Assembly (NCBI GenBank): GCA_035529595.1 | Contig: DATKWK010000023.1 | Location: 78,517-142,516 of the forward strand | Reading direction: 5' to 3' | Source: Candidatus Bathyarchaeia archaeon | GTDB taxonomy: Bacteria; Patescibacteriota; Microgenomatia; PFEM01; JAFGMK01 | DNA length: 64,000 nt | Shown: one piece after another, positions 12,316 through 25,553 of the stretch | Position numbering within the stretch: the stretch's first letter is position 1 | Layout: each line of letters opens with the position of its first letter | The notes under the pieces: generated by a model | Told to the model about the DNA's origin: nothing | What the model saw: only the letters and a program-made list of their open reading frames with translations | The model's database searches: none | Position numbers and translations under genes: made by a program

Positions 12316-13665
12316 ATGAGATTTAAAAGGACCATTTGCAGTTTTTTGATTCCGTTCGCTATCTTTCTGGGTTTTATTTACCTCTCTTTTCGCTTAACCG
12401 CATTTCCCAGTTTGTTCAATAACCAAGCCGATGGTTTTGCTTATTATTTGCCGTTACGTTCTTTTTATTTTGATGGTGATTTTCGTTTTGCCGATGAAAA
12501 TTCATACTTTGAATCTCTGACCGGCTGCCTACCTTATGACTGGCGTCATGTGACTGAGACCGGACACTCCGTTTATCATTATTCAGTTGGCCCGTCTTTT
12601 CTTTGGCTGCCGTTTGCCAAGCTTTTTTCAACCGAATACCGGGTTGCACCTCACTTATTGCTTGAATCAAAACAGCTCAACAGACCGCCGCCAATCGGTT
12701 TTTTCGGCAGCTCCTTTAAAAGCTTAGTTTTGGGAACTTATTTTTACGGAATCGTCGGCTTGATATTAATTTATTTATTTTTAAAACAAGTTACCAAGGG
12801 AAGTGGGTATTTATACTGGTTGACGGTAGTATTGATCTTTGGCGCTACCCCGTTTGTCTATTATTTTTTATACCAACCCTTAATGCCCCATGTGATGTCG
12901 GCTTTCTCAAATAGCCTTTTTCTATATTTTTGGTCGCGACGGATTGCAAGCAAGAGAAACCTTGATTGGTTTCTGGCCGGTCTTATTCTCGGGTTGGCCG
13001 CTTTAATCAAATGGCCTAACTTTCTCTTAGTTTTTTTCTTGATGATCGAATTAATTTTTGACGTCAAAGATAAACGAACCGGTTTTGTTCACGGAGCAGC
13101 GGCTTTTTTATTATGCATGGTAGGGTTTTTGATTACCTTTTCACCTCAGCTGATATTTTGGAAACAGGTCTATAGACGTATTTTAGTTATCCCCCAGGGA
13201 GCCGGCTTTTTTTCTTTAAAGATCACCAATTTTTTTAAATTTTTATTTTCGTGGCACCATGGCCTTTTTAGCTGGCACCCGCTTTTTTTACTCGCGATTA
13301 TCGGATATCTTATTTCCATTTTTAAAAAAAAAGATATTCGCTTGGCCGGAAGCAATAAAATACTTCTCTGGTCGAGCGTTTTAACCTTGGCGGCGGCAGC
13401 CATGATTTCCGGTCTCAATATCGATTGGCACGGCAGCGATTCTTTCGGAGCCCGACGGATGGTTGATTTCAGTCCGCTTTTTGCTTTAGGTCTTTTTTGG
13501 TTTTTACGGCGGTTCAGGAAAAAGCTGACCTATGTTTTCCCGATTTTGGTTGTTCTTATAGTTTATAATCTGTTATTTGCTATCCAGTATGCTCAATGGA
13601 AACTGGGGCATTTCGGACCGGTGTCTCCGGTTCAGGTGATACAAAATACTTTGAAAAATATGTAA
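12316..13665 (+). CDS. Polytopic membrane protein (449 aa), possibly a GT-C-type glycosyltransferase
   Basis: About 10-12 predicted TM helices. No definitive motif. Confidence 0.4.
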   Translation: MRFKRTICSFLIPFAIFLGFIYLSFRLTAFPSLFNNQADGFAYYLPLRSFYFDGDFRFADENSYFESLTGCLPYDWRHVTETGHSVYHYSVGPSFLWLPFAKLFSTEYRVAPHLLLESKQLNRPPPIGFFGSSFKSLVLGTYFYGIVGLILIYLFLKQVTKGSGYLYWLTVVLIFGATPFVYYFLYQPLMPHVMSAFSNSLFLYFWSRRIASKRNLDWFLAGLILGLAALIKWPNFLLVFFLMIELIFDVKDKRTGFVHGAAAFLLCMVGFLITFSPQLIFWKQVYRRILVIPQGAGFFSLKITNFFKFLFSWHHGLFSWHPLFLLAIIGYLISIFKKKDIRLAGSNKILLWSSVLTLAAAAMISGLNIDWHGSDSFGARRMVDFSPLFALGLFWFLRRFRKKLTYVFPILVVLIVYNLLFAIQYAQWKLGHFGPVSPVQVIQNTLKNM

Positions 13666-13712
13666 TAATCCTATCAGGATGCTTATTAAAATTTGTTTTA
13701 GGAGAGTATAAA

Positions 13713-15170
13713 ATGGCTAACGGTGAAAGTAGAACTCCAAGTGCAATTTTTGAGCCAGTTGGCGGTTCGGCGATAAAGGTTGCTCCTACGCAGGATCTAA
13801 TTGGCATTCTTCGTGACCAAAAAGGGCTGCCTGATGTTGGCACAGAGCCTTTTAGGGTTAAAATGGGAACCTCCGGGGGTGGTTCAGTAACTAGCGCTGA
13901 AGGAAGATTTCATTCTTGGGTCTTTAACCCCTTAGGGACAGTGATTCTGGCTTTTGCCAAGGAAAACCGTGGAAAGCTTGAGATTATCGGCTTAGCAGTC
14001 GGCGGTGAACACTTTACTCTTACTCCGGAGGATGTTGGTACAATCGTCATGATCAATGATAAAGCGACTATGGTTTACCAAGGCCAGGAGGGGCGTGAGG
14101 CAGTTTTTACGCCAGTGCGGGCGCGTTCAGCTTTAGAATTTAAAGAAGAGCCGGCATTGCCGGTTCTTCTTCCGGAAGCCAACAAAGACAATTTCCCTCA
14201 AATTGTCAAATCATTAATCGGCATTGAAGGGATTAACCAGCCTCTAACCGATGATGAACTGGGAAGACTTCTGTGGCAGGCAGGGAGGTTAATTACTGGT
14301 CCCTTGGACAGAGGTGGTTATCCGCCGGAGATATCCATTCGGGCTTTGGCCGCAGCGGTAGTTGCTCATCGCTCTTATGTGGAGGTTAGTCGTCGTTTTG
14401 ACTGGCAGGTAGAGCAGATACTGCCGGCAGAAGTTTTATCGGAAAACCGGCAATTAATGCCCGTATTTAAGGCTTTGACCCGATTGGCGAATGAAGTTGG
14501 TAAAGTTCACCGGACTCCCGGAGTATCGGAAGCGGAAAGCAATATCTGGCAACCGCGGCAGAATCGTGTCGGCCGATTCCAATTGACGACCTTTGCTTTT
14601 CCGGCAATTCATATTAAAGATAGTCGTGGCCAAGAGACGTGCCAGCCTTTTTTGGTTGCTTGTGCTGACGAGGAATTGCCGGTGGCTCAGCAGGAGTTAC
14701 TGAAGAGAATGGCCGTTCTATTTGGGTTGTCGTCCCAGGGAAAGACAGCCCAGGCAGAAGTTCTTCTTACCAGCCAGATCTTACCCGCCGGGGTGATGGA
14801 GGAAGCTTTTGTCCATCTGCTGCCAGCCGATCAGACTGAAGGCAGTGATCAAGTTGATTTTAATTTAATCTTAAACTTGTTTGGCCAGGATTCAGGAAGC
14901 GTCAGCCTTCTCTTACCGCGGAATTCCCCATTTATTAAGGGGCTTATTAGCCGGGGATTGCTAGCCCAAGGCCGGCAATCCTCAGGAAAAAACATGACCG
15001 GTGATTGGGTCCTCTGTGATCGTTGTACGATGACTCAAGGTGATTCGGTTCAATTCATGGCGATGTATATTTCCGGAAAAAATGTTGAAAACGAGGTAGT
15101 GACGGTGAGTTCCAAATTAGCTTGCCCGGGTGCAATGGTGGTTGTTGTTGCCCGTCCTTTTCGGGATTGA
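13713..15170 (+). CDS. Hypothetical protein (about 485 aa), high-GC (about 50 %) relative to neighbours
   Basis: Start chosen at ATG 13713 (RBS AGGAGAG); the track ORF from 13596 overlaps the preceding gene. Confidence 0.45.
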   Translation: MANGESRTPSAIFEPVGGSAIKVAPTQDLIGILRDQKGLPDVGTEPFRVKMGTSGGGSVTSAEGRFHSWVFNPLGTVILAFAKENRGKLEIIGLAVGGEHFTLTPEDVGTIVMINDKATMVYQGQEGREAVFTPVRARSALEFKEEPALPVLLPEANKDNFPQIVKSLIGIEGINQPLTDDELGRLLWQAGRLITGPLDRGGYPPEISIRALAAAVVAHRSYVEVSRRFDWQVEQILPAEVLSENRQLMPVFKALTRLANEVGKVHRTPGVSEAESNIWQPRQNRVGRFQLTTFAFPAIHIKDSRGQETCQPFLVACADEELPVAQQELLKRMAVLFGLSSQGKTAQAEVLLTSQILPAGVMEEAFVHLLPADQTEGSDQVDFNLILNLFGQDSGSVSLLLPRNSPFIKGLISRGLLAQGRQSSGKNMTGDWVLCDRCTMTQGDSVQFMAMYISGKNVENEVVTVSSKLACPGAMVVVVARPFRD

Positions 15171-15229
15171 AAAAGATTCAGGACGAAGAGCTATTTTTCA
15201 TGTGAAGCAAAGCTTTTTGAGCCTGGAGT

Positions 15230-15302
15230 GGGGGTCGAACCCACGACCTCATTCTTACCAAGAATGTGCTCTGCCAACTGAGCTATCCAGGCTTTGGCTT
15301 TC
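15230..15302 (-). tRNA. tRNA-Thr (anticodon GGT)
   Basis: rc = GCCTGGATAGCTCAGTTGGCAGAGCACATTCTTGGTAAGAATGAGGTCGTGGGTTCGACCCCCACTCCAGGCT. Anticodon loop UUGGUAA. Confidence 0.85.
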
Positions 15303-15334
15303 TTAAAATATTATAGATTCCAAGTGCCGGGAGC

Positions 15335-15417
15335 AGGATTTGCACCTACGAAGGCTTGCGCCAGCGGTTTTACAGACCGCTCCGTTTGACTACTTCGGTA
15401 TCCCGGCAGGAATTTCT
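15335..15417 (-). tRNA. tRNA-Tyr (anticodon GTA), long variable arm
   Basis: rc = GCCGGGATACCGAAGTAGTC...GCGGTCTGTAAAACCGC...(long extra arm)...GGTGCAAATCCTGCTCCCGGCA. 83 nt. Confidence 0.8.
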
Positions 15418-15472
15418 TTTGCAAATTATACCAAATTATTTAGATTCTAACCCACACCTTAGCCTCTTTTAG

Positions 15473-16589: not shown

Positions 16590-17003
16590 ATGGCTAAGAC
16601 TCGTTGTCAACATTGCGGTAAAGGATCGTTGTACGGAAAAAAAATCGCCCGCGCCCGCCAGGGTTTAAATTACCGCAGCCCGAAAGTCTTTAAAGTAAAT
16701 TTGCATTCGTTAAAAATAGAGGTAAACGGTCGCAAGAAAAAACTTACCCTTTGTACTAAATGCTTGCGCAAGGTGAAGAAGGATTGGCAGGAGAGAAAAA
16801 AGAAGCAGGAGCTTCTCAAGACACGGGCGGAAGTAAAAAAGAAGCCGTCCAAAGGACGGTCGTCCTCCGGACGAAAAGGAGTCGGGAAACTAAAAAAGAC
16901 AGTCAAAAAAGAAAGAGTCAGTCGGAAAGAAGCGCGCGAAAAAAGAAAAAAAGAGAAAGAAGAAAAAGAAAAGAAAAAAACGGTTCCCCTTAACGAGTCC
17001 TGA
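16590..17003 (+). CDS. rpmB: 50S ribosomal protein L28 with long Lys/Glu-rich C-terminal extension
   Basis: MAKTRCQHCGKGSLYGKK...PKVFKVNLHS...LCTKCLRK pattern typical of bL28; the tail is low-complexity K/E-rich. Confidence 0.55.
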   Translation: MAKTRCQHCGKGSLYGKKIARARQGLNYRSPKVFKVNLHSLKIEVNGRKKKLTLCTKCLRKVKKDWQERKKKQELLKTRAEVKKKPSKGRSSSGRKGVGKLKKTVKKERVSRKEAREKRKKEKEEKEKKKTVPLNES

Positions 17004-18473: not shown

Positions 18474-18542
18474 CTGTTCTTTGAGAAATTATACCATTGT
18501 TAATGATTGACGATCTATCACGTACTTGTTTAGAATGTACTT

Positions 18543-21161
18543 ATGATTAAAAAAATCAGTAATCTCTTTTTCTTCGTCTTTCTTGCCTTCTTTATAATAA
18601 TGTTTCTGCCTCTATCCATATACGGTCAAGATTCAAAAAAAGTTTTCTCTTCAAGGAACTTTTCGCTGAGAGAGACGGGCAATAAATTCGCCCCAAATCA
18701 GCTGCTGGTTCAGTTTAAAGATTCTCCTCAGGTTGTTTACGATCAAGAGGTTTCCTTTTCATTGCCGATTCTTAGGCAAAAGGTGTTAGTCCGTCGGGCA
18801 GGTTGGGCAGTAAAAGGAATGAGCGGCGTTACTAAATTAAATAAGAACTATCGAGTCGGTTCAGTCCAAAAATTGGGAGACCGGGGAGTTATGGGGAAAA
18901 TGGTACAAATTTATTTGCCGGAAGGAACCGATCTCGCCAGCGCCATGAGTGACTATTTTCAGGATAAGGATGTCGTCTCAGTTGAACCAAATTATTTCAC
19001 CCAAGCGGCGTGGATACCCAATGATCCTTATTTTTCTCAAAACCCTCTGGACTTTTACCAATGGAACCTTGGTCAAATCAATATGCCACTGGCTTGGGAT
19101 TATCAACCCCGAGGCGGAGCCAGCCCGATAATTGTGGCGGTAATCGATACCGGGATTGCCTTTCAAAATTCAGGGTCTTATCATCAAGCACCGGAACTGG
19201 CTCAAGTTCCCTTTGTTGCTCCTCAGAATTTCAATTCGACTGTCAGTTGTCCTGTGACTTGTGATGACGGTACCGACGGCGATCCTTATGATGACGATTG
19301 TACTTATGCTCCAACACCCTTTCCTCCCAATAGCCAGGCTTTTGACGATAATGGTCATGGAACCCACGTTGCGGGAACGATTGCTCAGCGGACTGACAAT
19401 GCAACCCACGCAGCCGGAATTGCCTTTAATGTTTCACTGATGCCGGTCAAAGTTCTAAATCATTGCGGCAGCGGTACAGCCACGGATATCATTAGGGGAA
19501 TCAATTATATCGTGTCATATCTTAGTACGAATCCGGGGAAAAAAGTTGTCGTCAATATGAGCCTGACTGTTTCCGGTGACTCCGGATTTTTGCATCAGGC
19601 AATTCAGGATGCGGTAACCGGCGGAGCGGTCGTTGTAGCCGCCAGCGGCAATAATGGCTCGTCCAGTGTCAGCTATCCGGCAGTTTATCCTGAAGTGATT
19701 GCGGTCGGGGCGACCCGGCTAGCCAAAACCGGAGCAGTTTATAATAACCTCCGAGCCAACTATTCTCAATACGGACCGGGTCTGGATATCGTCGCGCCCG
19801 GTGGCCAGACCATTAATGATAGCTTTAATGCGTTTCTGGATGTAAATAATGATCTTTTACCTGACGGAATTGTCCAACAGACGATTTATCCGACTGATTT
19901 TACCCGTTTTACACAGGTGAAAAGCGGTCTTCATCCGGTGTTCGGTCTTCAATGTATCAAGGAAATTCAGACCGACCAAGGAACCGGTTATATGATTGAT
20001 GATGAATGCGGAGTTTATCAGGGAACTTCGATGGCCACGCCGCATGTCAGTGCCGCCGTCGCCTTGATGTTAAGCATTAACCCCAATTTAAATCCTGATT
20101 CGATTGTCAGTATGCTTAAAAATACGGCCTCAAAGAGTCTGATACCCGGCTATAATCAGAATGAACACGGAGCCGGTCTTTTAGATGTGGCTGCTGTTTT
20201 GGGTCAGGTAATGACGACGGTAACATCCACTCCCACTCCATCGCTTACTCCGACTTTGAGCCCAACGCCGATATCTACACCGACAACCACTCCGGTTCAT
20301 AGCCCGACACCAACACCAACTTCCGGTTTAACGCCGACGCCGACTGCGACTAAAACTCCAACTCCATCTATTACGATAACCCCGACACAATCTATCTCGC
20401 CAACGCCCAGTACGACACCCACATCGACTCCGGTCCTAACGCCGACGGTAACCCCGACGCCGACAATAACACCCTCGCCAACCCAGACGCCGACGCCGAC
20501 ACCGACCCCGGATCCCGACCATCCGAATTTACGGATTAACTTAAAATTGCAAAATCGCAATAATCATTCCTGTGAGATAGAACTTAAGATTTACAGTGCT
20601 GATAAGCAGGAAATATATGCTCTGGATAATCTTGAAATCAATCAAGACGGCCTATCGTCATCATTCGTCCTGCCGGCTGACGAATCCTTGGTTAATGTTT
20701 CGGTTTGGATTAAAGAATTAACTCATTTAAGCAAGGTAATCAGTGATGTTAATTTGGATCGGGGGGTAGTGACGTCTTTGGATTTCGACAATCTTTTGGC
20801 TGGTGACGTTGCCAGCAATAACAAAGTCGATATTTACGATTATTCCCGTTTAGTTGAGGACTTCGGCTTGACTGAGCAAACGGCCGCCGACTTGGATGGT
20901 GATGGAGAAGTTGATATCTATGATTATGCCTTGTTGGTAGAAAATTTCGGCCAGGTTGGCCAAGTGATTGTTCCGTCATTAACTCCGACCCCGGTTTTAA
21001 CCCCGACTCCTACCCCCACCCCAACTCTCACCCCGACCCCCAGTGTTAGTCCAACTCCAACAGCCACGCTGACTTTGACACCGACACCTACCCAAGTACT
21101 GACGCCCAGTCCGACAATTACGATAGTACCGACTTTATCACCAACACCGACGCCGGTTTAG
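18543..21161 (+). CDS. Secreted subtilisin-like serine protease (peptidase S8) with Pro/Thr-rich linkers and a C-terminal dockerin-like repeat pair
   Basis: Catalytic triad contexts VIDTGI (Asp), [13 protein letters not shown] (His), [15 protein letters not shown] (Ser); signal peptide. Near the C-terminus there are duplicated [17 protein letters not shown] calcium-loop segments ([14 protein letters not shown] / [21 protein letters not shown]) typical of dockerins, flanked by (T/S)P repeats. Confidence 0.8.
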
Positions 21162-21194
21162 AACTCTTATAATGAAATAGCCCAGGAGGTATAA

Positions 21195-21794
21195 ATGAAA
21201 GGAGAAAAACAAGATTTTCAACCAACGGTTGCTTCCGAAAGAAGGAAACGACTTATTTTGCTGTTGTTTGTTTTCCTGATTTTACTTTTATTAATCGGCT
21301 GGCAGAAAGCACGATCGGCAAGATATGTTCCGCCCCCGATTAAATTTGAAAAAGAAGTTTCTCCCCGGGCTGATAGCCGTTTGTGGTTTGAACCGGAAAA
21401 TATTGAGGTAAAAATAAATTCTATTTTCCCCTTGATGATAAAAGTTGACACCGGACAAAATACCGCTGCCGCTGTCAAAATTGCCTTAAAATTTGATCCG
21501 GAAGTTTTGGAAGTAATTGATCTCATCCCCAGTGATTTTTTTCAACCGCCGCTGATTCTGGAAAAAAAGACCAATAATGTTGCCGGCACTATTTTTGTAA
21601 CCTTGGCTTGTCCGCCCGAACAGCCCAAACAGGGCAGCGGTAATTTATTTCTGGTTAACTATAAGGTTAAAGAAATCAGCAGTAAAAAGACGACTACAGT
21701 TGAGTTTCTGCCTCAAACTGAAATTGCCGCAATTAAAGAGCAGGGTAGCGTTTTAAAATTTCCCGAGAAGGCTACTATTGCCGTGGTTGAATAA
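21195..21794 (+). CDS. Membrane-anchored cohesin-like domain protein (199 aa)
   Basis: N-terminal TM. A beta-rich domain (...AAAVKIALKFDPEVLEVIDLIPSDFF...GNLFLVNYKVKEI...) is paralogous to the next gene and resembles cohesin modules. Confidence 0.45.
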   Translation: MKGEKQDFQPTVASERRKRLILLLFVFLILLLLIGWQKARSARYVPPPIKFEKEVSPRADSRLWFEPENIEVKINSIFPLMIKVDTGQNTAAAVKIALKFDPEVLEVIDLIPSDFFQPPLILEKKTNNVAGTIFVTLACPPEQPKQGSGNLFLVNYKVKEISSKKTTTVEFLPQTEIAAIKEQGSVLKFPEKATIAVVE

Positions 21795-22711
21795 TGAGTA
21801 AAGTCAAACTTTTTCTGGTAGTCATTGGTTTGATTCTGGTTTTGGCCGGGGTAGTTATCGGCGTTATTTTGGTCCGTCGGCGCCAGGAAGCCAGACTTAA
21901 GGCAGCGCCGGCGACGACACTCTCTTTCAGGCCGGCTGCCGTAACTGCAGAACAGGGGGGGAGTTTTGCTCTCGAAATCGTCGTTGATAGCGGCGAAAAT
22001 ACTCTGGCCGCAGTTGAGCTTCATCTAGCTTATGATCCTGAATATTTTGAGGTTTCCTCGATTATACCCGGTTCTTTTTTCGACTCACCGGTAGAGCTTA
22101 AGAAGGATACTGGTACTCTTGGTAGGATTGTTTATATTCTCGGTTGCCGTCCGGAGGGAGCTCAACAGGGTCAGGGTACTTTGGCAAGTCTGACTTTTTC
22201 GGTTAAACCTGATGCTGCTTCAGGAGTACCTTCGGAAATTAGTTTTTTGGCTTCGAGCCAGGCAGCCGGAATCAGTGAGGGCCAGGAAAATGTCGTCGTT
22301 GGTACTACTTCCTGTTTGGTGACGGTGGCCCAGGTTCAGCCTAGCGTGACACCAACTATAGCGCCAAGTTTAACACCGACTTTAGCGTCAACACCTACCT
22401 TAGTGCCATCAGCAACACCGACGCCAACGACACCTCCTTTACCGCCAACGGCTACCCCGACCCAGGCAGCCAGCTCGACTCCGACAGTTCCTGCTCCGAC
22501 TGCCACACCCACTCGCCAGCCGACTACCGTCCCGTCCAACACGCCGACTCCTCGTCCGACCGCCACACCAGTGCCGACTTCAGCGCCGGGCTTGACGGCA
22601 ACTCCGACTCCTCATTCAACAGTGCCGGTAACCGGTGGATTATGGCCAACCGCGGGTTTGTTTTTGGGAGCTTTACTGCTGGTATTTTTTGGTGTTGTTT
22701 ATACCTGGTGA
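21794..22711 (+). CDS. Cohesin-like domain protein with Pro/Thr-rich stalk and C-terminal hydrophobic anchor (305 aa)
   Basis: N-terminal TM/signal. Cohesin-like domain (...LAAVELHLAYDPEYFEVSSIIPGSFF...GTLASLTFSVKP...). Long TP(T/S) linker. C-terminal VPVTGGLWPTAGLFLGALLLVFFGVVYTW, a sorting-signal-like anchor lacking a basic tail. Confidence 0.5.
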   Translation: MSKVKLFLVVIGLILVLAGVVIGVILVRRRQEARLKAAPATTLSFRPAAVTAEQGGSFALEIVVDSGENTLAAVELHLAYDPEYFEVSSIIPGSFFDSPVELKKDTGTLGRIVYILGCRPEGAQQGQGTLASLTFSVKPDAASGVPSEISFLASSQAAGISEGQENVVVGTTSCLVTVAQVQPSVTPTIAPSLTPTLASTPTLVPSATPTPTTPPLPPTATPTQAASSTPTVPAPTATPTRQPTTVPSNTPTPRPTATPVPTSAPGLTATPTPHSTVPVTGGLWPTAGLFLGALLLVFFGVVYTW

Positions 22712-23265
22712 TTTTGATGCCTTTCAACTTTGAAAATCTCCAGTTTAACCGTTTCGTGAGGGAAAAGGCCGGCTTTTTGATAGCAAATTTTGATTTGTTC
22801 AGAAGCAGAGTTTACTTCCGGAATATCAGGTAAGAGTAGCCCCTTCCGTCCGCCTTGACCGGTTACAATCAGGCCGTATTTTCTCGGATCTAAAATTTCA
22901 GGCCGGCGATTACCAATCCTGAAATTTTGAGTTACCGGCTGAGGTTCTGAAAGGACATCAACCGAAATGTCCAACTTTGGTAGTTCGTTTGAGCTGACTG
23001 CTGGAAATCGCGGATCCTGGGTGGCGGCACCGATAGCATTGGCGATAATTTCTTCGGCGATATTTCTTTGGATTGGTAAAATTGTGCCGATACAACCCCG
23101 CAATGTTCCGTCTTTTCGATGAATCGAGACAAAAACTCCACTTCGTTTCCGAGTCATTTCCCCGGGCAGTGACGCCGGGATACTTATTATTTGGTGGCTT
23201 TGGAGATATTGGCTTATTGCTTCTCTGGCCAGCCGGCGATAGGGGTCTTTATTTTTTTTATTCAT
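22699..23265 (-). CDS. AMMECR1 domain protein (AmmeMemoRadiSam system protein A)
   Basis: ...RSGVFVSIHRKDGTLRGCIGTILP... (GCIG motif). Confidence 0.75.
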   Translation of the reverse strand: MNKKNKDPYRRLAREAISQYLQSHQIISIPASLPGEMTRKRSGVFVSIHRKDGTLRGCIGTILPIQRNIAEEIIANAIGAATQDPRFPAVSSNELPKLDISVDVLSEPQPVTQNFRIGNRRPEILDPRKYGLIVTGQGGRKGLLLPDIPEVNSASEQIKICYQKAGLFPHETVKLEIFKVERHQNHQV

Positions 23266-23275
23266 GGCAGTTTTT

Positions 23276-24013
23276 TTAAAGCAGCCGGGCGACTAGGTAA
23301 CCAACCCCAAACGGCCCTTCGTAGGAGAGAATTTTCGGTTGCCAATTAATATTTTTCTCTTCTAAAGCACCCAATAGCAGGCAGAAAGAACGCAGGCCGC
23401 ATTCACCGGCTTCTTCAATTAAATTTGAATTAAGGCTTAAGATAGCCTCAATATTCTTCTTTTTCAACAAACCGATGAATTTTTGATCGAATTTCGGTCC
23501 CGAGGGGTGAAGTCCGTAGGGACCGTCTTTCTTCAATCGATGGCTCATGTCGCCTGAGGCAATCCAGGCGACTCGTTTTTCCTTCGGTAAGTTGGCAGTA
23601 ATTTCTTTTCCCCATCCAAAATGCTTCTTGGGTGAATCAAGAGTTGTTAATATAGGTTGGACGGTTAGTTTATCAGGTTCGATAAGTTTAAAGTCAGCCG
23701 GATTCTGATAATCTAAAATTTTGATTTGAGTTTTAAGCTTTGAGACTAAGAAGAAAAGCGGCACTTCAATGCCCCAGTCAGGATGAGGAGAGGAGACAAT
23801 AATCAAATCCGGCTTGGTTTTGGCTAATTCCGGGGCTAATTTTTCCAAACTGGAAATTGTTTCTTTGACTCTGGCCCGGTCAGTCTCTCCGCCGATATGG
23901 GGCAGAAGTAAAGGCGGATGAGGCGAAATACAGGCAAAAACAAGCATATCTTGGCTATCAGTATAGCGGTTAATTTTCAACAAGACAAGAATCAAGCTTG
24001 ATTCTTGAGTCAA
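23276..24013 (-). CDS. MEMO1-like protein (AmmeMemoRadiSam system protein B; class III extradiol dioxygenase B-subunit-like fold)
   Basis: ACISPHPPLLLPHIGG and SPHPDWG His-containing motifs. Adjacent to AMMECR1 and the radical SAM partner. Confidence 0.65.
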   Translation of the reverse strand: MTQESSLILVLLKINRYTDSQDMLVFACISPHPPLLLPHIGGETDRARVKETISSLEKLAPELAKTKPDLIIVSSPHPDWGIEVPLFFLVSKLKTQIKILDYQNPADFKLIEPDKLTVQPILTTLDSPKKHFGWGKEITANLPKEKRVAWIASGDMSHRLKKDGPYGLHPSGPKFDQKFIGLLKKKNIEAILSLNSNLIEEAGECGLRSFCLLLGALEEKNINWQPKILSYEGPFGVGYLVARLL

Positions 24014-24058
24014 AAATTGTTATAAGCTAATCTTATTTTTGAAAAAGGAGTCTTATCA

Positions 24059-24493
24059 ATGAATCAGATAGAAGCGACTGAAGCACATTTTCTCAGAATG
24101 GCAGCTATTTCAGAGGAACTAATACTGGATCCTGTACCGTTGGTAACTGGTGAGGAATTAGAAGCAAGAAGAAAAGATGCTAGGGCTTGTAGCTGTTTAA
24201 TTTCACCAGATGAAATGGATCGTCTTATAGCGGCGGGAAAAGCAATTTACGGTTCGTCATTTGGTGGCGCCCTTGTCTTAAAAGTACAGGCAGGTAATGG
24301 AGAGGAACGATCTTACATGCAATGTAAGGACTGTGGTTGGGTGTCTAATACAAGAGCAGGTAATGCCGTTCCCCATTTATCTCTGGGAATAGATGGCTCT
24401 AGCCCGGTTGTTACAATTCATTGTTCAGTATGTTATGGTGAGATAGGCAGCTTCCTCCTAGCATGTCGGGAAGGTGTGGCTATCTCAAAATGA
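24059..24493 (+). CDS. Hypothetical Cys-containing protein (144 aa) on the opposite strand, inside the AmmeMemoRadiSam locus
   Basis: CKDCGW...HCSVCYGE zinc-ribbon-like Cys pairs. No known motif. Confidence 0.35.
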   Translation: MNQIEATEAHFLRMAAISEELILDPVPLVTGEELEARRKDARACSCLISPDEMDRLIAAGKAIYGSSFGGALVLKVQAGNGEERSYMQCKDCGWVSNTRAGNAVPHLSLGIDGSSPVVTIHCSVCYGEIGSFLLACREGVAISK

Positions 24494-25553
24494 GATTTAA
24501 GCTCTCAGTACATTTTTTACAGTTGCCTTTTTTATCAACCGCTAAAATTTTCGGTTGCCAAAGGCTTCTTTTAATTGCCAGAGTTTTACATTTGGGACAA
24601 TAAGTATCGCCTTTGGCAAAAACGCCGCCGTTAAAATCAATTCCCGGTGCCCAAATATAGACAAATTCCAGGCCCGCTTGACGGCCGATTTTTTCCGCTT
24701 TCAGTAATTGCTCACGGCTCGGCGCTGGAATTTTAGCAAACTCCTGATCCGGAGCCATATCCGGGGAATAACGCGACAGGTGCCAGGGAACTTTGGGGCT
24801 TAAATTACGAGCGATCCAGTCGGCCATGGCTTTGAGTTCTTTCGGATCGTCATTAACGCCGGGAATCAGAACAGTTGTGATTTCAAGATGGATACCGTAT
24901 TTTTTATAAGCATATTTGGTCATTTCTAAAAGCTGCCCCCAATAAGCATCCATACGGTTGTAGGTTTTTTGAGAAAAGCCCTTAAAGTCAATGTTGGCGG
25001 CGTCAATATAAGGCCCGATGGTATCAAGGGCTTCTTTGCTCCAACAGCCGTTAGTGACAAAAAGCGTTTTTAAACCTTTAATTTTTGCTAGTCTTGCGGT
25101 CTCCAGGACAAACTCAAGCCACAAAGTCGGCTCATTATAGGTAAAAGCGATACTGGGCAGATGAGCATTGAGGCAAAGTTTAACTATTTGCTCCGGTTTA
25201 ACAGCTTCTTGCTCTTTTTCCTGACGGCGCTTTTTTAAAATTGACGACGACGGTTCGCCCCAGGAACACCACCAGTTGAGGCATTGTTTGCAGCGGTAAT
25301 TACAGCCGAAAGAGCCGACAGAGAGAGTCTGGGTGCCGGGAAGAAAGTGGTAAAACGGTTTTTTCTCAACCGGGTCGGCAGAAGGCGCACCGTTTAATAA
25401 ACCGTAATTCAGGCTGTAAAGAAGACCATTTTTATTAAGTCTGGTGAGGCAAAAACCAACTTGGTCGGGTGCAATTCGGCAATAGCGCTGGCAAGTCAAA
25501 CATTGGACCTGGCCTTTGGTCAAATTTTTATAAAGAAGTGCTTTCTTCATCAA
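24480..25553 (-). CDS. Radical SAM enzyme (AmmeMemoRadiSam system radical SAM protein, PFL-activase-like)
   Basis: CNYRCKQC (CxxxCxxC). Additional C-terminal Cys cluster CPKCK...CKKC. Confidence 0.8.
   Translation of the reverse strand: MMKKALLYKNLTKGQVQCLTCQRYCRIAPDQVGFCLTRLNKNGLLYSLNYGLLNGAPSADPVEKKPFYHFLPGTQTLSVGSFGCNYRCKQCLNWWCSWGEPSSSILKKRRQEKEQEAVKPEQIVKLCLNAHLPSIAFTYNEPTLWLEFVLETARLAKIKGLKTLFVTNGCWSKEALDTIGPYIDAANIDFKGFSQKTYNRMDAYWGQLLEMTKYAYKKYGIHLEITTVLIPGVNDDPKELKAMADWIARNLSPKVPWHLSRYSPDMAPDQEFAKIPAPSREQLLKAEKIGRQAGLEFVYIWAPGIDFNGGVFAKGDTYCPKCKTLAIKRSLWQPKILAVDKKGNCKKCTESLNLILR

Follow-up and report, generated by a model that had tools for sequence, protein, structure and literature searches.

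Tethering of a protease by its dockerin to an anchored cohesin is already known in principle from cellulosome-producing Firmicutes. [quoted passage not shown] The same source places a single cohesin and a Thr/Pro-rich linker between the signal and the LPXTG-type signal of ScaE, whose ligands carry an X-module and a dockerin (ScaB, CttA and the cysteine peptidase). The double dockerin of the C. thermocellum subtilisin-family protease is dDoc_0689 (8x39/8x3a; Chen et al. [quoted passage not shown] Use of these modules outside polysaccharide degradation is represented by the C. perfringens NagH/NagJ toxin complexes (2ozn/2jnk) and an Archaeoglobus fulgidus cohesin (2xdh).

The locus described here, from an ultra-small CPR (Microgenomates) bacterium without a cellulosome, combines similar parts. 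Within the window (the whole stretch of DNA that was analysed, 64,000 nucleotides), three adjacent genes specify a protease with a docking module and two surface proteins with the matching receptor module, by which the cell most likely displays the protease on its surface. It is probable, though well short of certain, that the protease is tethered Ca-dependently via cohesin/X-Doc pairing to wall- and membrane-anchored cohesins. The preliminary description of this DNA had called such a use unusual, which is overstated given the S8 and cysteine peptidases of C. thermocellum and R. flavefaciens (PMC12484212). Its assumption of a CPR origin is right, as orthologous cassettes and the signature motif of the family are found in MAGs of Ca. 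Shapirobacteria, Gottesmanbacteria and Woesebacteria, and its tie to episymbiotic feeding on a host is speculation.

The protease gene and its operon

The first gene encodes, in order, a signal peptide, prodomain, S8 domain, PT linker, X-module, dockerin and PT tail, and is followed by two cohesin genes.

18507..18536, + strand: candidate sigma-70-like promoter TTGACG-18-TAGAAT, directly 5' of the protease gene (consensus scan, 10/12 matches)
18543..21161, + strand: gene 1, secreted S8 subtilisin, 872 aa (ORF; Pfam; NCBI 'S8 family serine peptidase', HUW21628.1)
18543..18626, + strand: signal peptide, aa 1-28 (MIKK...LSIYG, putative cleavage before QD; read from the sequence)
19128..20150, + strand: S8 catalytic domain, aa 196-536 (Pfam, motifs)
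20223..20519, + strand: PT-rich linker 1, aa 561-659, 99 aa (sequence composition)
20520..20795, + strand: X-module, beta-sandwich, transthyretin/CarboxypepD_reg-like, aa 660-751 (AlphaFold2, Foldseek)
20796..20966, + strand: dockerin, two repeats, aa 752-808 (Pfam, PDB phmmer, AlphaFold2/Foldseek)
20967..21158, + strand: C-terminal PT-rich tail, aa 809-872, 64 aa (sequence composition; comparison with the Shapirobacteria orthologue)
21184..21189, + strand: Shine-Dalgarno AGGAGG, 5 nt before the gene 2 ATG (sequence)
21195..21794, + strand: gene 2, small cohesin protein, 199 aa (Pfam; NCBI 'cohesin domain-containing protein', HUW21629.1)
21794..22711, + strand: gene 3, anchored cohesin protein, 305 aa (ORF, junction, Pfam; NCBI 'cohesin domain-containing protein')

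All three ORFs are found at these coordinates, and an alternative 853-aa call for gene 1 lacks the signal peptide. The earlier identification of an 872-aa subtilase is confirmed: Peptidase_S8 matches aa 196-536 with E=3.8e-48 (Pfam), the catalytic triad D202/H272/S496 is intact in DTG/HGT/GTSMA motifs, and the closest solved structures to this domain are subtilisin BPN', savinase and AprV2 (E about 1e-32).

The candidate promoter lies 7 nt ahead of the gene 1 ATG, a position that is suggestive only of a promoter role; promoter-type sites number 9 versus 6.8 +/- 2.5 in shuffles, so their count is not significant. Genes 1 and 2 are separated by 33 nt, and the gene 2 stop and gene 3 start overlap by 1 nt (TAATG). 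The sole terminator-like match within the operon is weak and lies inside gene 3 (21845-21862); shuffled sequence gives at least as many matches of this kind. A six-frame translation of the window contains the dockerin-loop motif a single time, and across the 64 kb the cohesin and dockerin HMMs built for the analysis match nothing but these three ORFs. This concentration of one dockerin and two cohesins in a single tightly coupled operon is not chance.

Expressed cohesin/dockerin genes of a Ca. Shapirobacterales MAG were taken as a cellulosome by Bell et al. 2022 (PMC9123182), and some related loci place a dockerin on possible glycosidase-like proteins or have, in one case, a GH39-like neighbour. 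That the present operon belongs to a true cellulosome for plant-polysaccharide degradation is nevertheless extremely unlikely, since Pfam and NCBIfam find no glycoside hydrolase, CBM or multi-cohesin scaffoldin in it, its cargo is a protease, and the cargo of relatives is mostly non-CAZy (cohesin adaptors, beta-helix, LRR, PKD and phosphatase).

The X-module-dockerin dyad

The duplicated calcium-loop segment noted earlier between PT-rich linkers lies at aa 752-808, flanked by PT-rich stretches of 99 and 64 aa. Its reading as a dockerin stands, while the adjoining X-module had been missed. In the full-length protein the Dockerin_1 score of 22.4 bits falls 0.5 bit short of the gathering score of 22.9; the isolated 149-aa module reaches 27.9 bits (E=2.6e-6) and passes it. 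The top PDB sequence matches (phmmer) are dockerins, not the generic EF-hands that had been considered as the alternative: the best is the NagH FIVAR-Doc of C. perfringens (2jnk/2ozn, E=8e-4), 8x39 of dDoc_0689 is also among the sequence matches, and a weak match to the CipA X-Doc (2b59_B, E=0.02) reaches into the X-module.

In the AlphaFold2 model of the 149-aa module (pLDDT 96.9, pTM 0.89), the X-module, with strands at model residues 2-92, packs against the dockerin, whose helices span aa 764-773 and 792-800. The best 10 PDB matches of this model in Foldseek are all type II X-Doc (E 5e-8 to 6e-6, TM 0.67-0.71). The module superposes over its full length on the C. thermocellum CipA X-Doc known with SdbA/ScaC (2b59, 5g5d, 3kcp), at an identity of only 13-16%, and relatives bear Pfam CarboxypepD_reg. 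Like the clostridial type II dyads, the module would presumably link its carrier to a cohesin on the cell surface. The clostridial dyad, however, sits on a primary scaffoldin rather than an enzyme and pairs with type II cohesins on SLH-anchored proteins, whereas here the dyad would pair with small type-I-like cohesins anchored by a TM helix or by sortase. Also unlike the present module, dDoc_0689, from a cellulosome-producing Firmicute, consists of two dockerins in tandem, has an intramolecular clasp and lacks an X-module. NagH/NagJ join soluble enzymes together and the A. fulgidus cohesin is uncharacterised; both differ from this locus in lacking a conserved cassette of membrane- and wall-anchored cohesin receptors.

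The degenerate first Ca loop (Ala at ligand position 3, Asn at position 6) and the internal placement of the dockerin, with a 64-aa tail after it, count against tethering. At the position of this tail, the Shapirobacteria orthologue has a linker and an LRR domain. The LRR is a protein-binding fold and would suit a scheme in which no pairing takes place and the X-Doc and cohesin-like domains act independently, as adhesins or by binding carbohydrates or host surfaces. For Omnitrophota, an adhesin role has been suggested for non-cellulosomal dockerins (PMC10066038), and host glycans have been proposed as the target of an essential dockerin-domain envelope protein of a Saccharibacterium (PMC10633639). 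Such independent action is quite unlikely here, because each fold corresponds to modules for which mutual binding is the one established function, and the linkage of dockerin and cohesin in many loci, including those chosen by the dockerin motif alone, is what a binding pair predicts.

The anchored cohesins

The gene 3 protein is divided as follows.

21809..21922, + strand: N-terminal TM helix, aa 6-27, and juxtamembrane motif QEARLKAAPATTL, aa 31-43 (AlphaFold2; family conservation)
21905..22336, + strand: cohesin domain, aa 38-181, a compact type-I-like jelly-roll of about 140 aa (AlphaFold2, Foldseek)
22337..22621, + strand: PT-rich stalk, aa 182-276, ~95 aa (composition; predicted disordered, pLDDT about 46-60)
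22622..22708, + strand: predicted C-terminal sorting signal, VPVTG + GLWPT + hydrophobic helix, aa 277-305 (regex match, unique in the window)

The HMM searches that the preliminary description proposed place both downstream proteins above the Pfam Cohesin gathering score of 24.1 bits (gene 2, 26.3; gene 3, 39.0), and the two domains are paralogous, as had been supposed (37% identity over 123 aa, E=2e-23). The best 50 PDB matches of the gene 3 model (pLDDT about 96) are cohesins only, with 6kgf_C at E=1.8e-11 and the highest TM, 0.83, for 1g1k_A; the fold matches include ScaE (2zf9), ScaG, A. fulgidus and C. perfringens structures. The domain is compact and ranks nearest type I cohesins while the dyad resembles type II X-Doc, so the binding mode of a known complex is not transferable. 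The ScaE cohesin, by contrast, is of type III and spans about 180-200 aa, and the X-module of its system forms an elongated stalk.

Gene 2 encodes an N-terminal basic segment, a TM helix (aa 20-36), a short spacer and a cohesin (aa about 60-198), with no stalk and no C-terminal signal. A possible analogue is R. flavefaciens ScaG (4n2o, 4wkz), a small protein of hardly more than one cohesin that binds an X-Doc, although the ScaG fold matches came from the gene 3 model and the gene 2 protein, unlike ScaG, has an N-terminal TM anchor.

The AlphaFold2 model of gene 3 has helices at 3-37 and 284-304, and the protein ends in VPVTGG followed by 23 hydrophobic residues. The long PT stalk and sorting-signal-like anchor were thus read correctly from the sequence, and the signal is a family-wide, LPXTG-like one: [IMVL]Px[STA]G, ~20 hydrophobic residues and an optional basic tail occur in 36 of 66 cohesin ORFs, and the same type of signal is found on unrelated non-cohesin neighbours. 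Counting against tethering, the window copy lacks the basic tail that most relatives have, and no sortase gene was found in the 64-kb window; a sortase family is reported to be near-ubiquitous in Microgenomates (PMC6744442). A further point on that side is that the N-terminal helix has no canonical signal-peptidase site, so the N-terminus may remain in the membrane, which complicates the picture of a stalk.

The juxtamembrane motif (QExRxKAAPAT) is conserved in the family after the TM helix, and a search with it returned 57 DNA stretches, mainly from Microgenomates MAGs. Its conservation beside a helix without a canonical signal-peptidase site would fit, for example, a cut at this motif by the S8 enzyme, acting as a dedicated maturation protease for neighbouring surface proteins and merely brought to them by its dockerin. 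The best NCBIfam similarities of gene 1 are likewise to secretion-associated maturation subtilases (mycosin, PatA/G), and processing of cellulosome components has been put forward as a role of cellulosomal peptidases (PMC12484212). Those similarities are far under the cut-offs (114 vs 279 bits), however, the gene 2 protein lacks the motif, and seven of nine cassette loci retain it with no protease, which makes a maturation role very improbable.

Under the favoured tethering reading, the Sec-secreted protease would present a rigid type II-like X-Doc on its ~100-aa linker to paralogous receptors of one cohesin each. The gene 3 cohesin would be held between the TM/signal helix and the stalk, with sortase probably joining the protein to the cell wall, and the gene 2 anchor would keep its cohesin near the membrane. 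The dockerin may bind one or both cohesins, non-covalently and Ca-dependently, so that proteolysis would be kept at the cell surface or at a contact zone with a host or putative substrate.

Conservation of the cassette and choice of partners

The order of dockerin gene, small cohesin and anchored cohesin recurs with differing cargo in seven other Microgenomates loci (L003, L017, L022, L025, L030, L048 and L060); L001 and L002, also among the nine cassette loci, duplicate the locus of the window itself. Most cassettes begin with a gene for a cohesin-(X-)Doc adaptor, not an enzyme, and the protease may accordingly dock on other cohesins, encoded elsewhere in the genome. The parts would then be real but differently matched, with the window cohesins taking other dockerin proteins and the protease X-Doc another cohesin, such as one carried by an adaptor scaffoldin elsewhere in the ~0.85-Mb genome, and adjacency would reflect co-regulation of one surface system. 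Further dockerin enzymes do lie near cassettes or in arrays, dockerin proteins (1,177 representatives at E<=1e-3) far outnumber cohesin genes, and the recognition helices VDI(Y/F)DY are almost invariant between cargos, so pairing may show little specificity, with one partner able to substitute for another.

This alternative is unlikely, though it deserves serious weight. Against it stand the confinement of the window's dockerin and cohesins to one operon and the Ca. Shapirobacteria locus L060, where the first gene is likewise an S8-X-Doc and the cassette is kept at 41-47% identity (41% for the gene 2 orthologue) between different flanks. Because flanking genes are unlike between loci, the cassette alone is conserved. 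Small and anchored cohesins form two separate orthologous groups, and the second, membrane-anchored cohesin gene is always present beside the anchored one, a difference from the ScaE system. Of 53 metagenome loci chosen by a dockerin motif only, 16 contain a cohesin ORF, and a cohesin gene directly follows 10 of the 60 dockerin genes with room downstream. Gene linkage kept across genomic contexts indirectly supports a functional cohesin-dockerin pairing.

Layout and lineage of the three-gene unit

The preliminary description had proposed that a dockerin-tagged S8 protease is displayed on two downstream membrane-anchored cohesin-like proteins, and the three open reading frames concerned lie exactly where it placed them. 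On the opposite strand, a convergent AmmeMemoRadiSam-type trio (22699-25553) overlaps the end of the third gene.

Genes of the unit and of the convergent trio (window positions)
18543-21161, + strand: gene 1, S8 protease, ORF of 872 aa
21195-21794, + strand: gene 2, small cohesin protein, ORF of 199 aa
21794-22711, + strand: gene 3, anchored cohesin protein, ORF of 305 aa
22699-23265, - strand: AMMECR1, overlapping the end of gene 3 by 13 nt
23276-24013, - strand: LigB/Memo-like gene of the trio
24480-25553, - strand: radical SAM gene of the trio

The three genes form a tight unit. Genes 1 and 2 share one reading frame and are separated by 33 nt with AGGAGG inside, and genes 2 and 3 overlap by a single base (TAATG). 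The best promoter-like site, a sigma-70-like match (10/12; TTGACG-18-TAGAAT, within 18507-18543), has its end 7 nt from the ATG of gene 1, which shows no Shine-Dalgarno sequence ahead of it, so the operon mRNA would be leaderless or nearly so. Within the operon there is one weak terminator-like match only (21845-21862, in gene 3), of a kind no commoner here than in shuffled sequences. All six frames of the 64-kb window together contain the dockerin-loop motif a single time, and custom cohesin and dockerin HMMs match these three ORFs alone, with no cohesin in the other ~60 kb. Upstream of the unit, the bL28 gene (16590-17003, + strand) has a product of 137 aa, roughly double the normal size, which is extended at its C-terminus by about 70 Lys/Glu-rich residues.

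The MAG is labeled 'Candidatus Bathyarchaeia archaeon' by NCBI, a name at odds with the bacterial gene content and very likely wrong. Genes of bacterial type surround the unit in the window (bL28, Def, Fmt, MreBCD, PBP2), and cassette orthologues occur in Ca. Shapirobacteria and Gottesmanbacteria. A degenerate DNA pattern of the juxtamembrane motif found in gene 3 retrieved 57 DNA stretches from species-representative genomes, most of them from Ca. Gottesmanbacteria, Woesebacteria, Shapirobacteria and 'Patescibacteria group' MAGs; the rest comprise some TPA bins with implausible labels and a few chance matches in high-GC actinomycetes. The bacterial neighbors, together with motif matches that fall mainly in CPR MAGs, indicate that the window comes from a Microgenomates-type CPR bacterium, as had been assumed. 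Rfam annotation of the window yields four tRNAs only and no rRNA. Several 'TPA_asm uncultured Gammaproteobacteria' bins carrying the same CPR gene family look likewise mislabeled.

The protease and its X-module-dockerin dyad

The N-terminus of the gene 1 product (MIKK...LSIYG/QD) reads as a Sec signal peptide, which would be missing from the shorter product (853 aa) that one assembly annotates. The Pfam Peptidase_S8 domain spans aa 196-536 (E=3.8e-48), and the Asp-His-Ser triad by which an active S8 protease is recognized, set in that order within D[ST]G, HGT and GTSxA motifs, is complete (D202 in DTG, H272 in HGT and S496 in GTSMA). Its closest solved relatives are the ordinary subtilisins BPN', savinase and AprV2 (E about 1e-32). 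NCBIfam yields sub-threshold subtilase subfamily matches only, with scores far under the cut-offs of the specialized mycosin, PatA/G and dentilisin families; membership is rejected both for the T7SS mycosins (114 against a cut-off of 279 bits) and for PatA (46 against 421 bits). It is very improbable that gene 1 encodes a maturation protease.

The catalytic domain is followed by a 99-aa PT linker, the dockerin-containing module and, as an oddity, a further PT tail of 64 aa (20967-21158). In P0050, the closest gene 1 orthologue, which opens a Ca. Shapirobacteria locus (L060, 6025-7998), the place of this tail is taken by a PT linker and a plant-type LRR domain of ~300 aa, which suggests that a binding domain at the C-terminus of the protease has been lost in the lineage of the window.

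The isolated 149-aa module (aa 660-808) is scored by Dockerin_1 (PF00404) at 27.9 bits (E=2.6e-6), above the gathering score of 22.9 bits, so the HMM search named in the preliminary description returns the dockerin it anticipated. The PT-rich full-length product reaches 22.4 bits, just below the gathering score, which is probably why NCBI names it (HUW21628.1) 'S8 family serine peptidase' only. The module contains the two repeats of ~22 residues that define a dockerin, each made up of an EF-hand-like Ca loop (D-x-[DN]-x-[DN]-G-x-x-[DN]-x-x-D) and a helix after it. The loop of repeat 2 is canonical and that of repeat 1 is, unusually, degenerate at positions 3 and 6; AlphaFold2 places the two helices at aa 764-773 and 792-800 with pLDDT >93. 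The best PDB sequence matches are dockerins, namely the FIVAR-Doc of C. perfringens NagH (E=8e-4) and the X-Doc of CipA (2b59_B, E=0.02), the latter alignment reaching back into the region before the dockerin.

That region belongs to the same structural unit in the AlphaFold2 model, built from a 20-sequence alignment (pLDDT 96.9, pTM 0.89), in which a beta-sandwich (aa 660-751) packs against the two-helix dockerin as one compact body. The best 10 Foldseek matches of the model in the PDB are all type II X-module-dockerin dyads (E 5e-8 to 6e-6, TM 0.67-0.71, about 165 columns), including those of CipA (2b59_B, 5g5d_B, 3kcp_A and 4fl4), A. cellulolyticus ScaA (4wi0_B and 4u3s_B) and CipB (5m0y_B). 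Transthyretin/CarboxypepD_reg-like folds rank next and cover the X part alone. As modeled, the gene 1 dockerin is thus an X-module-dockerin (X-Doc) dyad with an Ig-like/beta-sandwich X-module directly N-terminal to it. The proposal of a dockerin on the protease stands on Pfam, sequence and fold matches alike, although the module is richer than described, its X-module having been missed. A reading of the C-terminal repeats as generic EF-hand or thrombospondin repeats is rejected, since dockerins are the top matches by sequence as well as by fold. An exhaustive HMMER search with the X-Doc returns 1,177 cluster representatives at E<=1e-3, many of which align over the dockerin and the preceding ~90 residues, mostly at the extreme C-terminus of the protein; a word-index homologue search gave no match with the 149-aa module and 9 proteins only with the X-Doc profile.

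Cohesin domains, anchors and the putative sorting signal

Both downstream products exceed the gathering score of Pfam Cohesin (PF00963, 24.1 bits), gene 2 with 26.3 bits and gene 3 with 39.0 bits. They are paralogous, as had been noticed, with 37% identity over 123 aa (E=2e-23). NCBI names each a 'cohesin domain-containing protein' (gene 2 product, HUW21629.1), and NCBIfam has no match for either. The AlphaFold2 model of gene 3 consists of an N-terminal helix (3-37), a beta-sandwich (41-180, pLDDT about 96), a disordered PT stalk and a C-terminal helix (284-304); the sandwich has the nine strands and jelly-roll topology of the cohesin fold, in agreement with the cohesin-like character first ascribed to these domains. 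By its Pfam score and its paralogy to gene 3, the gene 2 product is classed as a cohesin as well.

All of the best 50 PDB matches of the gene 3 model are cohesins (prob 1.00). Type I cohesins lead (6kgf_C, E=1.8e-11; 1g1k_A, TM 0.83, rmsd 2.2 A), with TM in the range 0.77-0.83, and type II and III cohesins fit less well, with TM 0.55-0.65 (1qzn 0.60, 5m0y_A 0.57). A type II cohesin has about 170-180 aa, two beta-flaps and an alpha-helix that links strands 6 and 7; the gene 3 domain, with about 140 aa, its nearest ranks among type I structures and a one-turn helix only between strands 6 and 7, is not assigned to that type. Since the dyad is type-II-like but the cohesin type-I-like, the interface cannot be modeled on any complex known so far.

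The two cohesins differ in how they are anchored. The gene 2 product starts with a basic segment, followed by a single TM helix (aa 20-36), a short spacer and the cohesin, with which it ends. In the gene 3 product a TM helix (aa 6-27) is followed by a juxtamembrane motif (QEARLKAAPATTL), the cohesin, a PT stalk of ~95 aa, the sequence VPVTG-GLWPT and a terminal hydrophobic helix. An LPXTG-type signal comprises an LPXTG-like pentapeptide, a hydrophobic segment and a positively charged C-terminal tail. Homologues end in [I/M/V/L]-P-x-[S/T/A]-G, a spacer of about 5 residues, a hydrophobic stretch of about 20 and mostly a basic tail (R, RR or KR), an ending with the make-up of the classic tripartite sortase signal. 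This [IMVL]Px[STA]G signal is present in 36 of the 66 cohesin ORFs of the fetched loci, and the same signal closes unrelated fn3/Big_13 proteins nearby. The resemblance to a sorting signal pointed out for gene 3 holds for VPVTG and the hydrophobic helix, which follow the family-wide motif, but the window copy closes with 23 mostly hydrophobic residues after VPVTG, without the basic tail. The NCBIfam scan gave no LPXTG-anchor match, and no sortase was found in the 64-kb window with the TLxTC motif or by phmmer with a S. aureus SrtA sequence. One sortase family is reported to be near-ubiquitous in Microgenomates (Meheust et al., 2019; PMC6744442).

The juxtamembrane motif (Q-E-x-R-x-K-A-A-P-A-T-x-L in family alignment A1/A3; window 21884-21922) is strongly conserved directly after the N-terminal TM helix. 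It is present on anchored cohesins and cohesin-X-Doc adaptors, absent from small cohesins, and is not a canonical signal-peptidase site. Proteins of ~430 aa that are not cohesins also carry [IMVL]Px[ST]G, a TM segment and a basic end in several loci (L004, 13955-15235; L006, 11668-12990; L036 and L038, about 350-1660), which points to a general surface-sorting signal of the lineage. The L004 protein, the one scanned, has sub-threshold fn3/Big_13 matches, and in L004 and L006 these proteins adjoin pilN/pilO-like genes.

Conservation of the cassette and proposed surface display

Related loci were gathered by degenerate DNA patterns of the juxtamembrane and dockerin motifs, and all loci fetched were scanned with purpose-built HMMs of the cohesin, X-Doc, dockerin and S8 domains. 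One gene order recurs, with one or more dockerin genes followed by a small cohesin (180-230 aa) and an anchored cohesin (270-500 aa), in L003, L017, L022, L025, L030, L048 and L060. The first gene of L060 is again an S8-X-Doc protein, and its two cohesins are the reciprocal best matches of genes 2 and 3 (41% and 43-45% identity, respectively). The first gene in the remaining cassette loci encodes a cohesin-(X-)Doc adaptor, at times preceded by dockerin-tagged enzyme-like proteins. The window and the cassette loci have no genes in common beyond the cassette, so the unit is kept as such and not through general synteny. In an independent set of 53 metagenome loci chosen by the dockerin motif alone, a cohesin ORF is present in 16 (raw count), and of the 60 dockerin genes in these loci that leave space for a following gene, 10 directly precede a cohesin gene (also a raw count). 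It is unlikely that the three neighbors are non-cognate parts of a larger system, and a scheme in which the X-Doc and the cohesins serve in independent adhesin roles appears quite improbable.

The subtilisin is probably displayed on the cell surface through its X-Doc, held by membrane- and wall-anchored cohesins in what would be Ca-dependent binding. The protease would be secreted and its dyad would bind one or both cohesins; the gene 3 product, presumably attached to the wall by a sortase, would carry its cohesin on the PT stalk, and the gene 2 product would keep a second cohesin at the membrane. The cassette always has both receptors, which could possibly act as a relay or a two-tier arrangement. 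The original interpretation is thus supported in its parts and in their gene linkage, from which we infer the pairing itself. A wider reading is offered tentatively and is open to considerable doubt. It holds that a display system with exchangeable cargo extends across Microgenomates, in which a membrane-proximal small cohesin and a wall-anchored stalked cohesin, working as a relay or in two tiers, would place X-Doc-tagged proteases, LRR binders, adaptor scaffoldins and hydrolases at the surface or at the contact zone between episymbiont and host. The subtilisin would then attack or feed on a partner cell and not on plant polymers, and a 'cellulosome-like' machine would have been repurposed for an epibiotic lifestyle.

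Cohesins and dockerins outside cellulosomes are reportedly widespread, the theme of Peer et al. (2009) as cited in PMC10066038. Dockerin-tethered proteases on cell-bound cohesins have precedents in C. thermocellum, where an S8 protease double-dockerin binds ScaD (PDB 8x39), and in R. flavefaciens, where the X-Doc of a cysteine peptidase binds sortase-anchored ScaE (both reviewed in PMC12484212). R. flavefaciens commonly combines LRRs and dockerins in one protein (PMC2930009), and an essential envelope protein of a Saccharibacterium is reported to have a dockerin domain (PMC10633639). Cohesin and dockerin genes expressed in a Ca. Shapirobacterales MAG have been interpreted as a cellulosome (Bell et al., 2022; PMC9123182). 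A cellulosome has a multi-cohesin scaffoldin with a CBM that integrates dockerin-bearing glycoside hydrolases; as far as the window shows, this operon has single-cohesin proteins and a protease as cargo, with no CBM and no glycoside hydrolase, and the chance that it is part of a true cellulosome is slight in the extreme. The protease cargo calls for caution in taking cohesin and dockerin matches in CPR MAGs as cellulosomes.

The tethering principle and the domains are already known, and the cohesins had been named by automated annotation. Novel features are an enzyme that carries a type II-like X-Doc, cohesins of compact size, a cassette with a fixed pair of receptors and a host from the CPR; no description of the three-gene cassette, of the X-Doc nature of CPR dockerins or of paired membrane- and wall-anchored cohesin receptors was found in the literature searched. 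X-Doc-type anchoring would be extended beyond cellulosome-producing Firmicutes, here with compact type-I-like cohesins. Surface organization and host or substrate interaction are very little understood in CPR/Patescibacteria, and a conserved modular cassette of two differently anchored receptors and exchangeable cargo would offer a testable mechanism by which tiny cells retain costly secreted enzymes on their own surface. As the modules are small and modeled with high confidence, recombinant tests of binding and specificity are feasible even though the organism is uncultured.

Other arrangements of these modules occur in the fetched loci. A second and more numerous group of anchored-cohesin paralogues (340-390 aa) has a Big_13 domain before the sorting signal and always has the hrcA-grpE-dnaK-dnaJ operon on one side and a GH39-like gene on the other (L004, 8001-10496; L006, 5480-8106; and many other loci), standing alone with no small cohesin or dockerin gene adjoining. 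The first gene of the cassette in L003 (MAG GCA_034680565.1; 3952-5763) encodes a cohesin-PA14-cohesin-dockerin adaptor, and ~5.5 kb downstream of that cassette (12964-15427) lies a gene for a purple-acid-phosphatase/metallophosphatase that contains a malectin domain and, internally, a dockerin, an instance of non-CAZy cargo. Tandem arrays of three to six dockerin genes in a row are found in the metagenome loci L078, L101, L105 and L107, which suggests that some of these organisms have many kinds of dockerin cargo; the array in L101 ends with a small cohesin gene.
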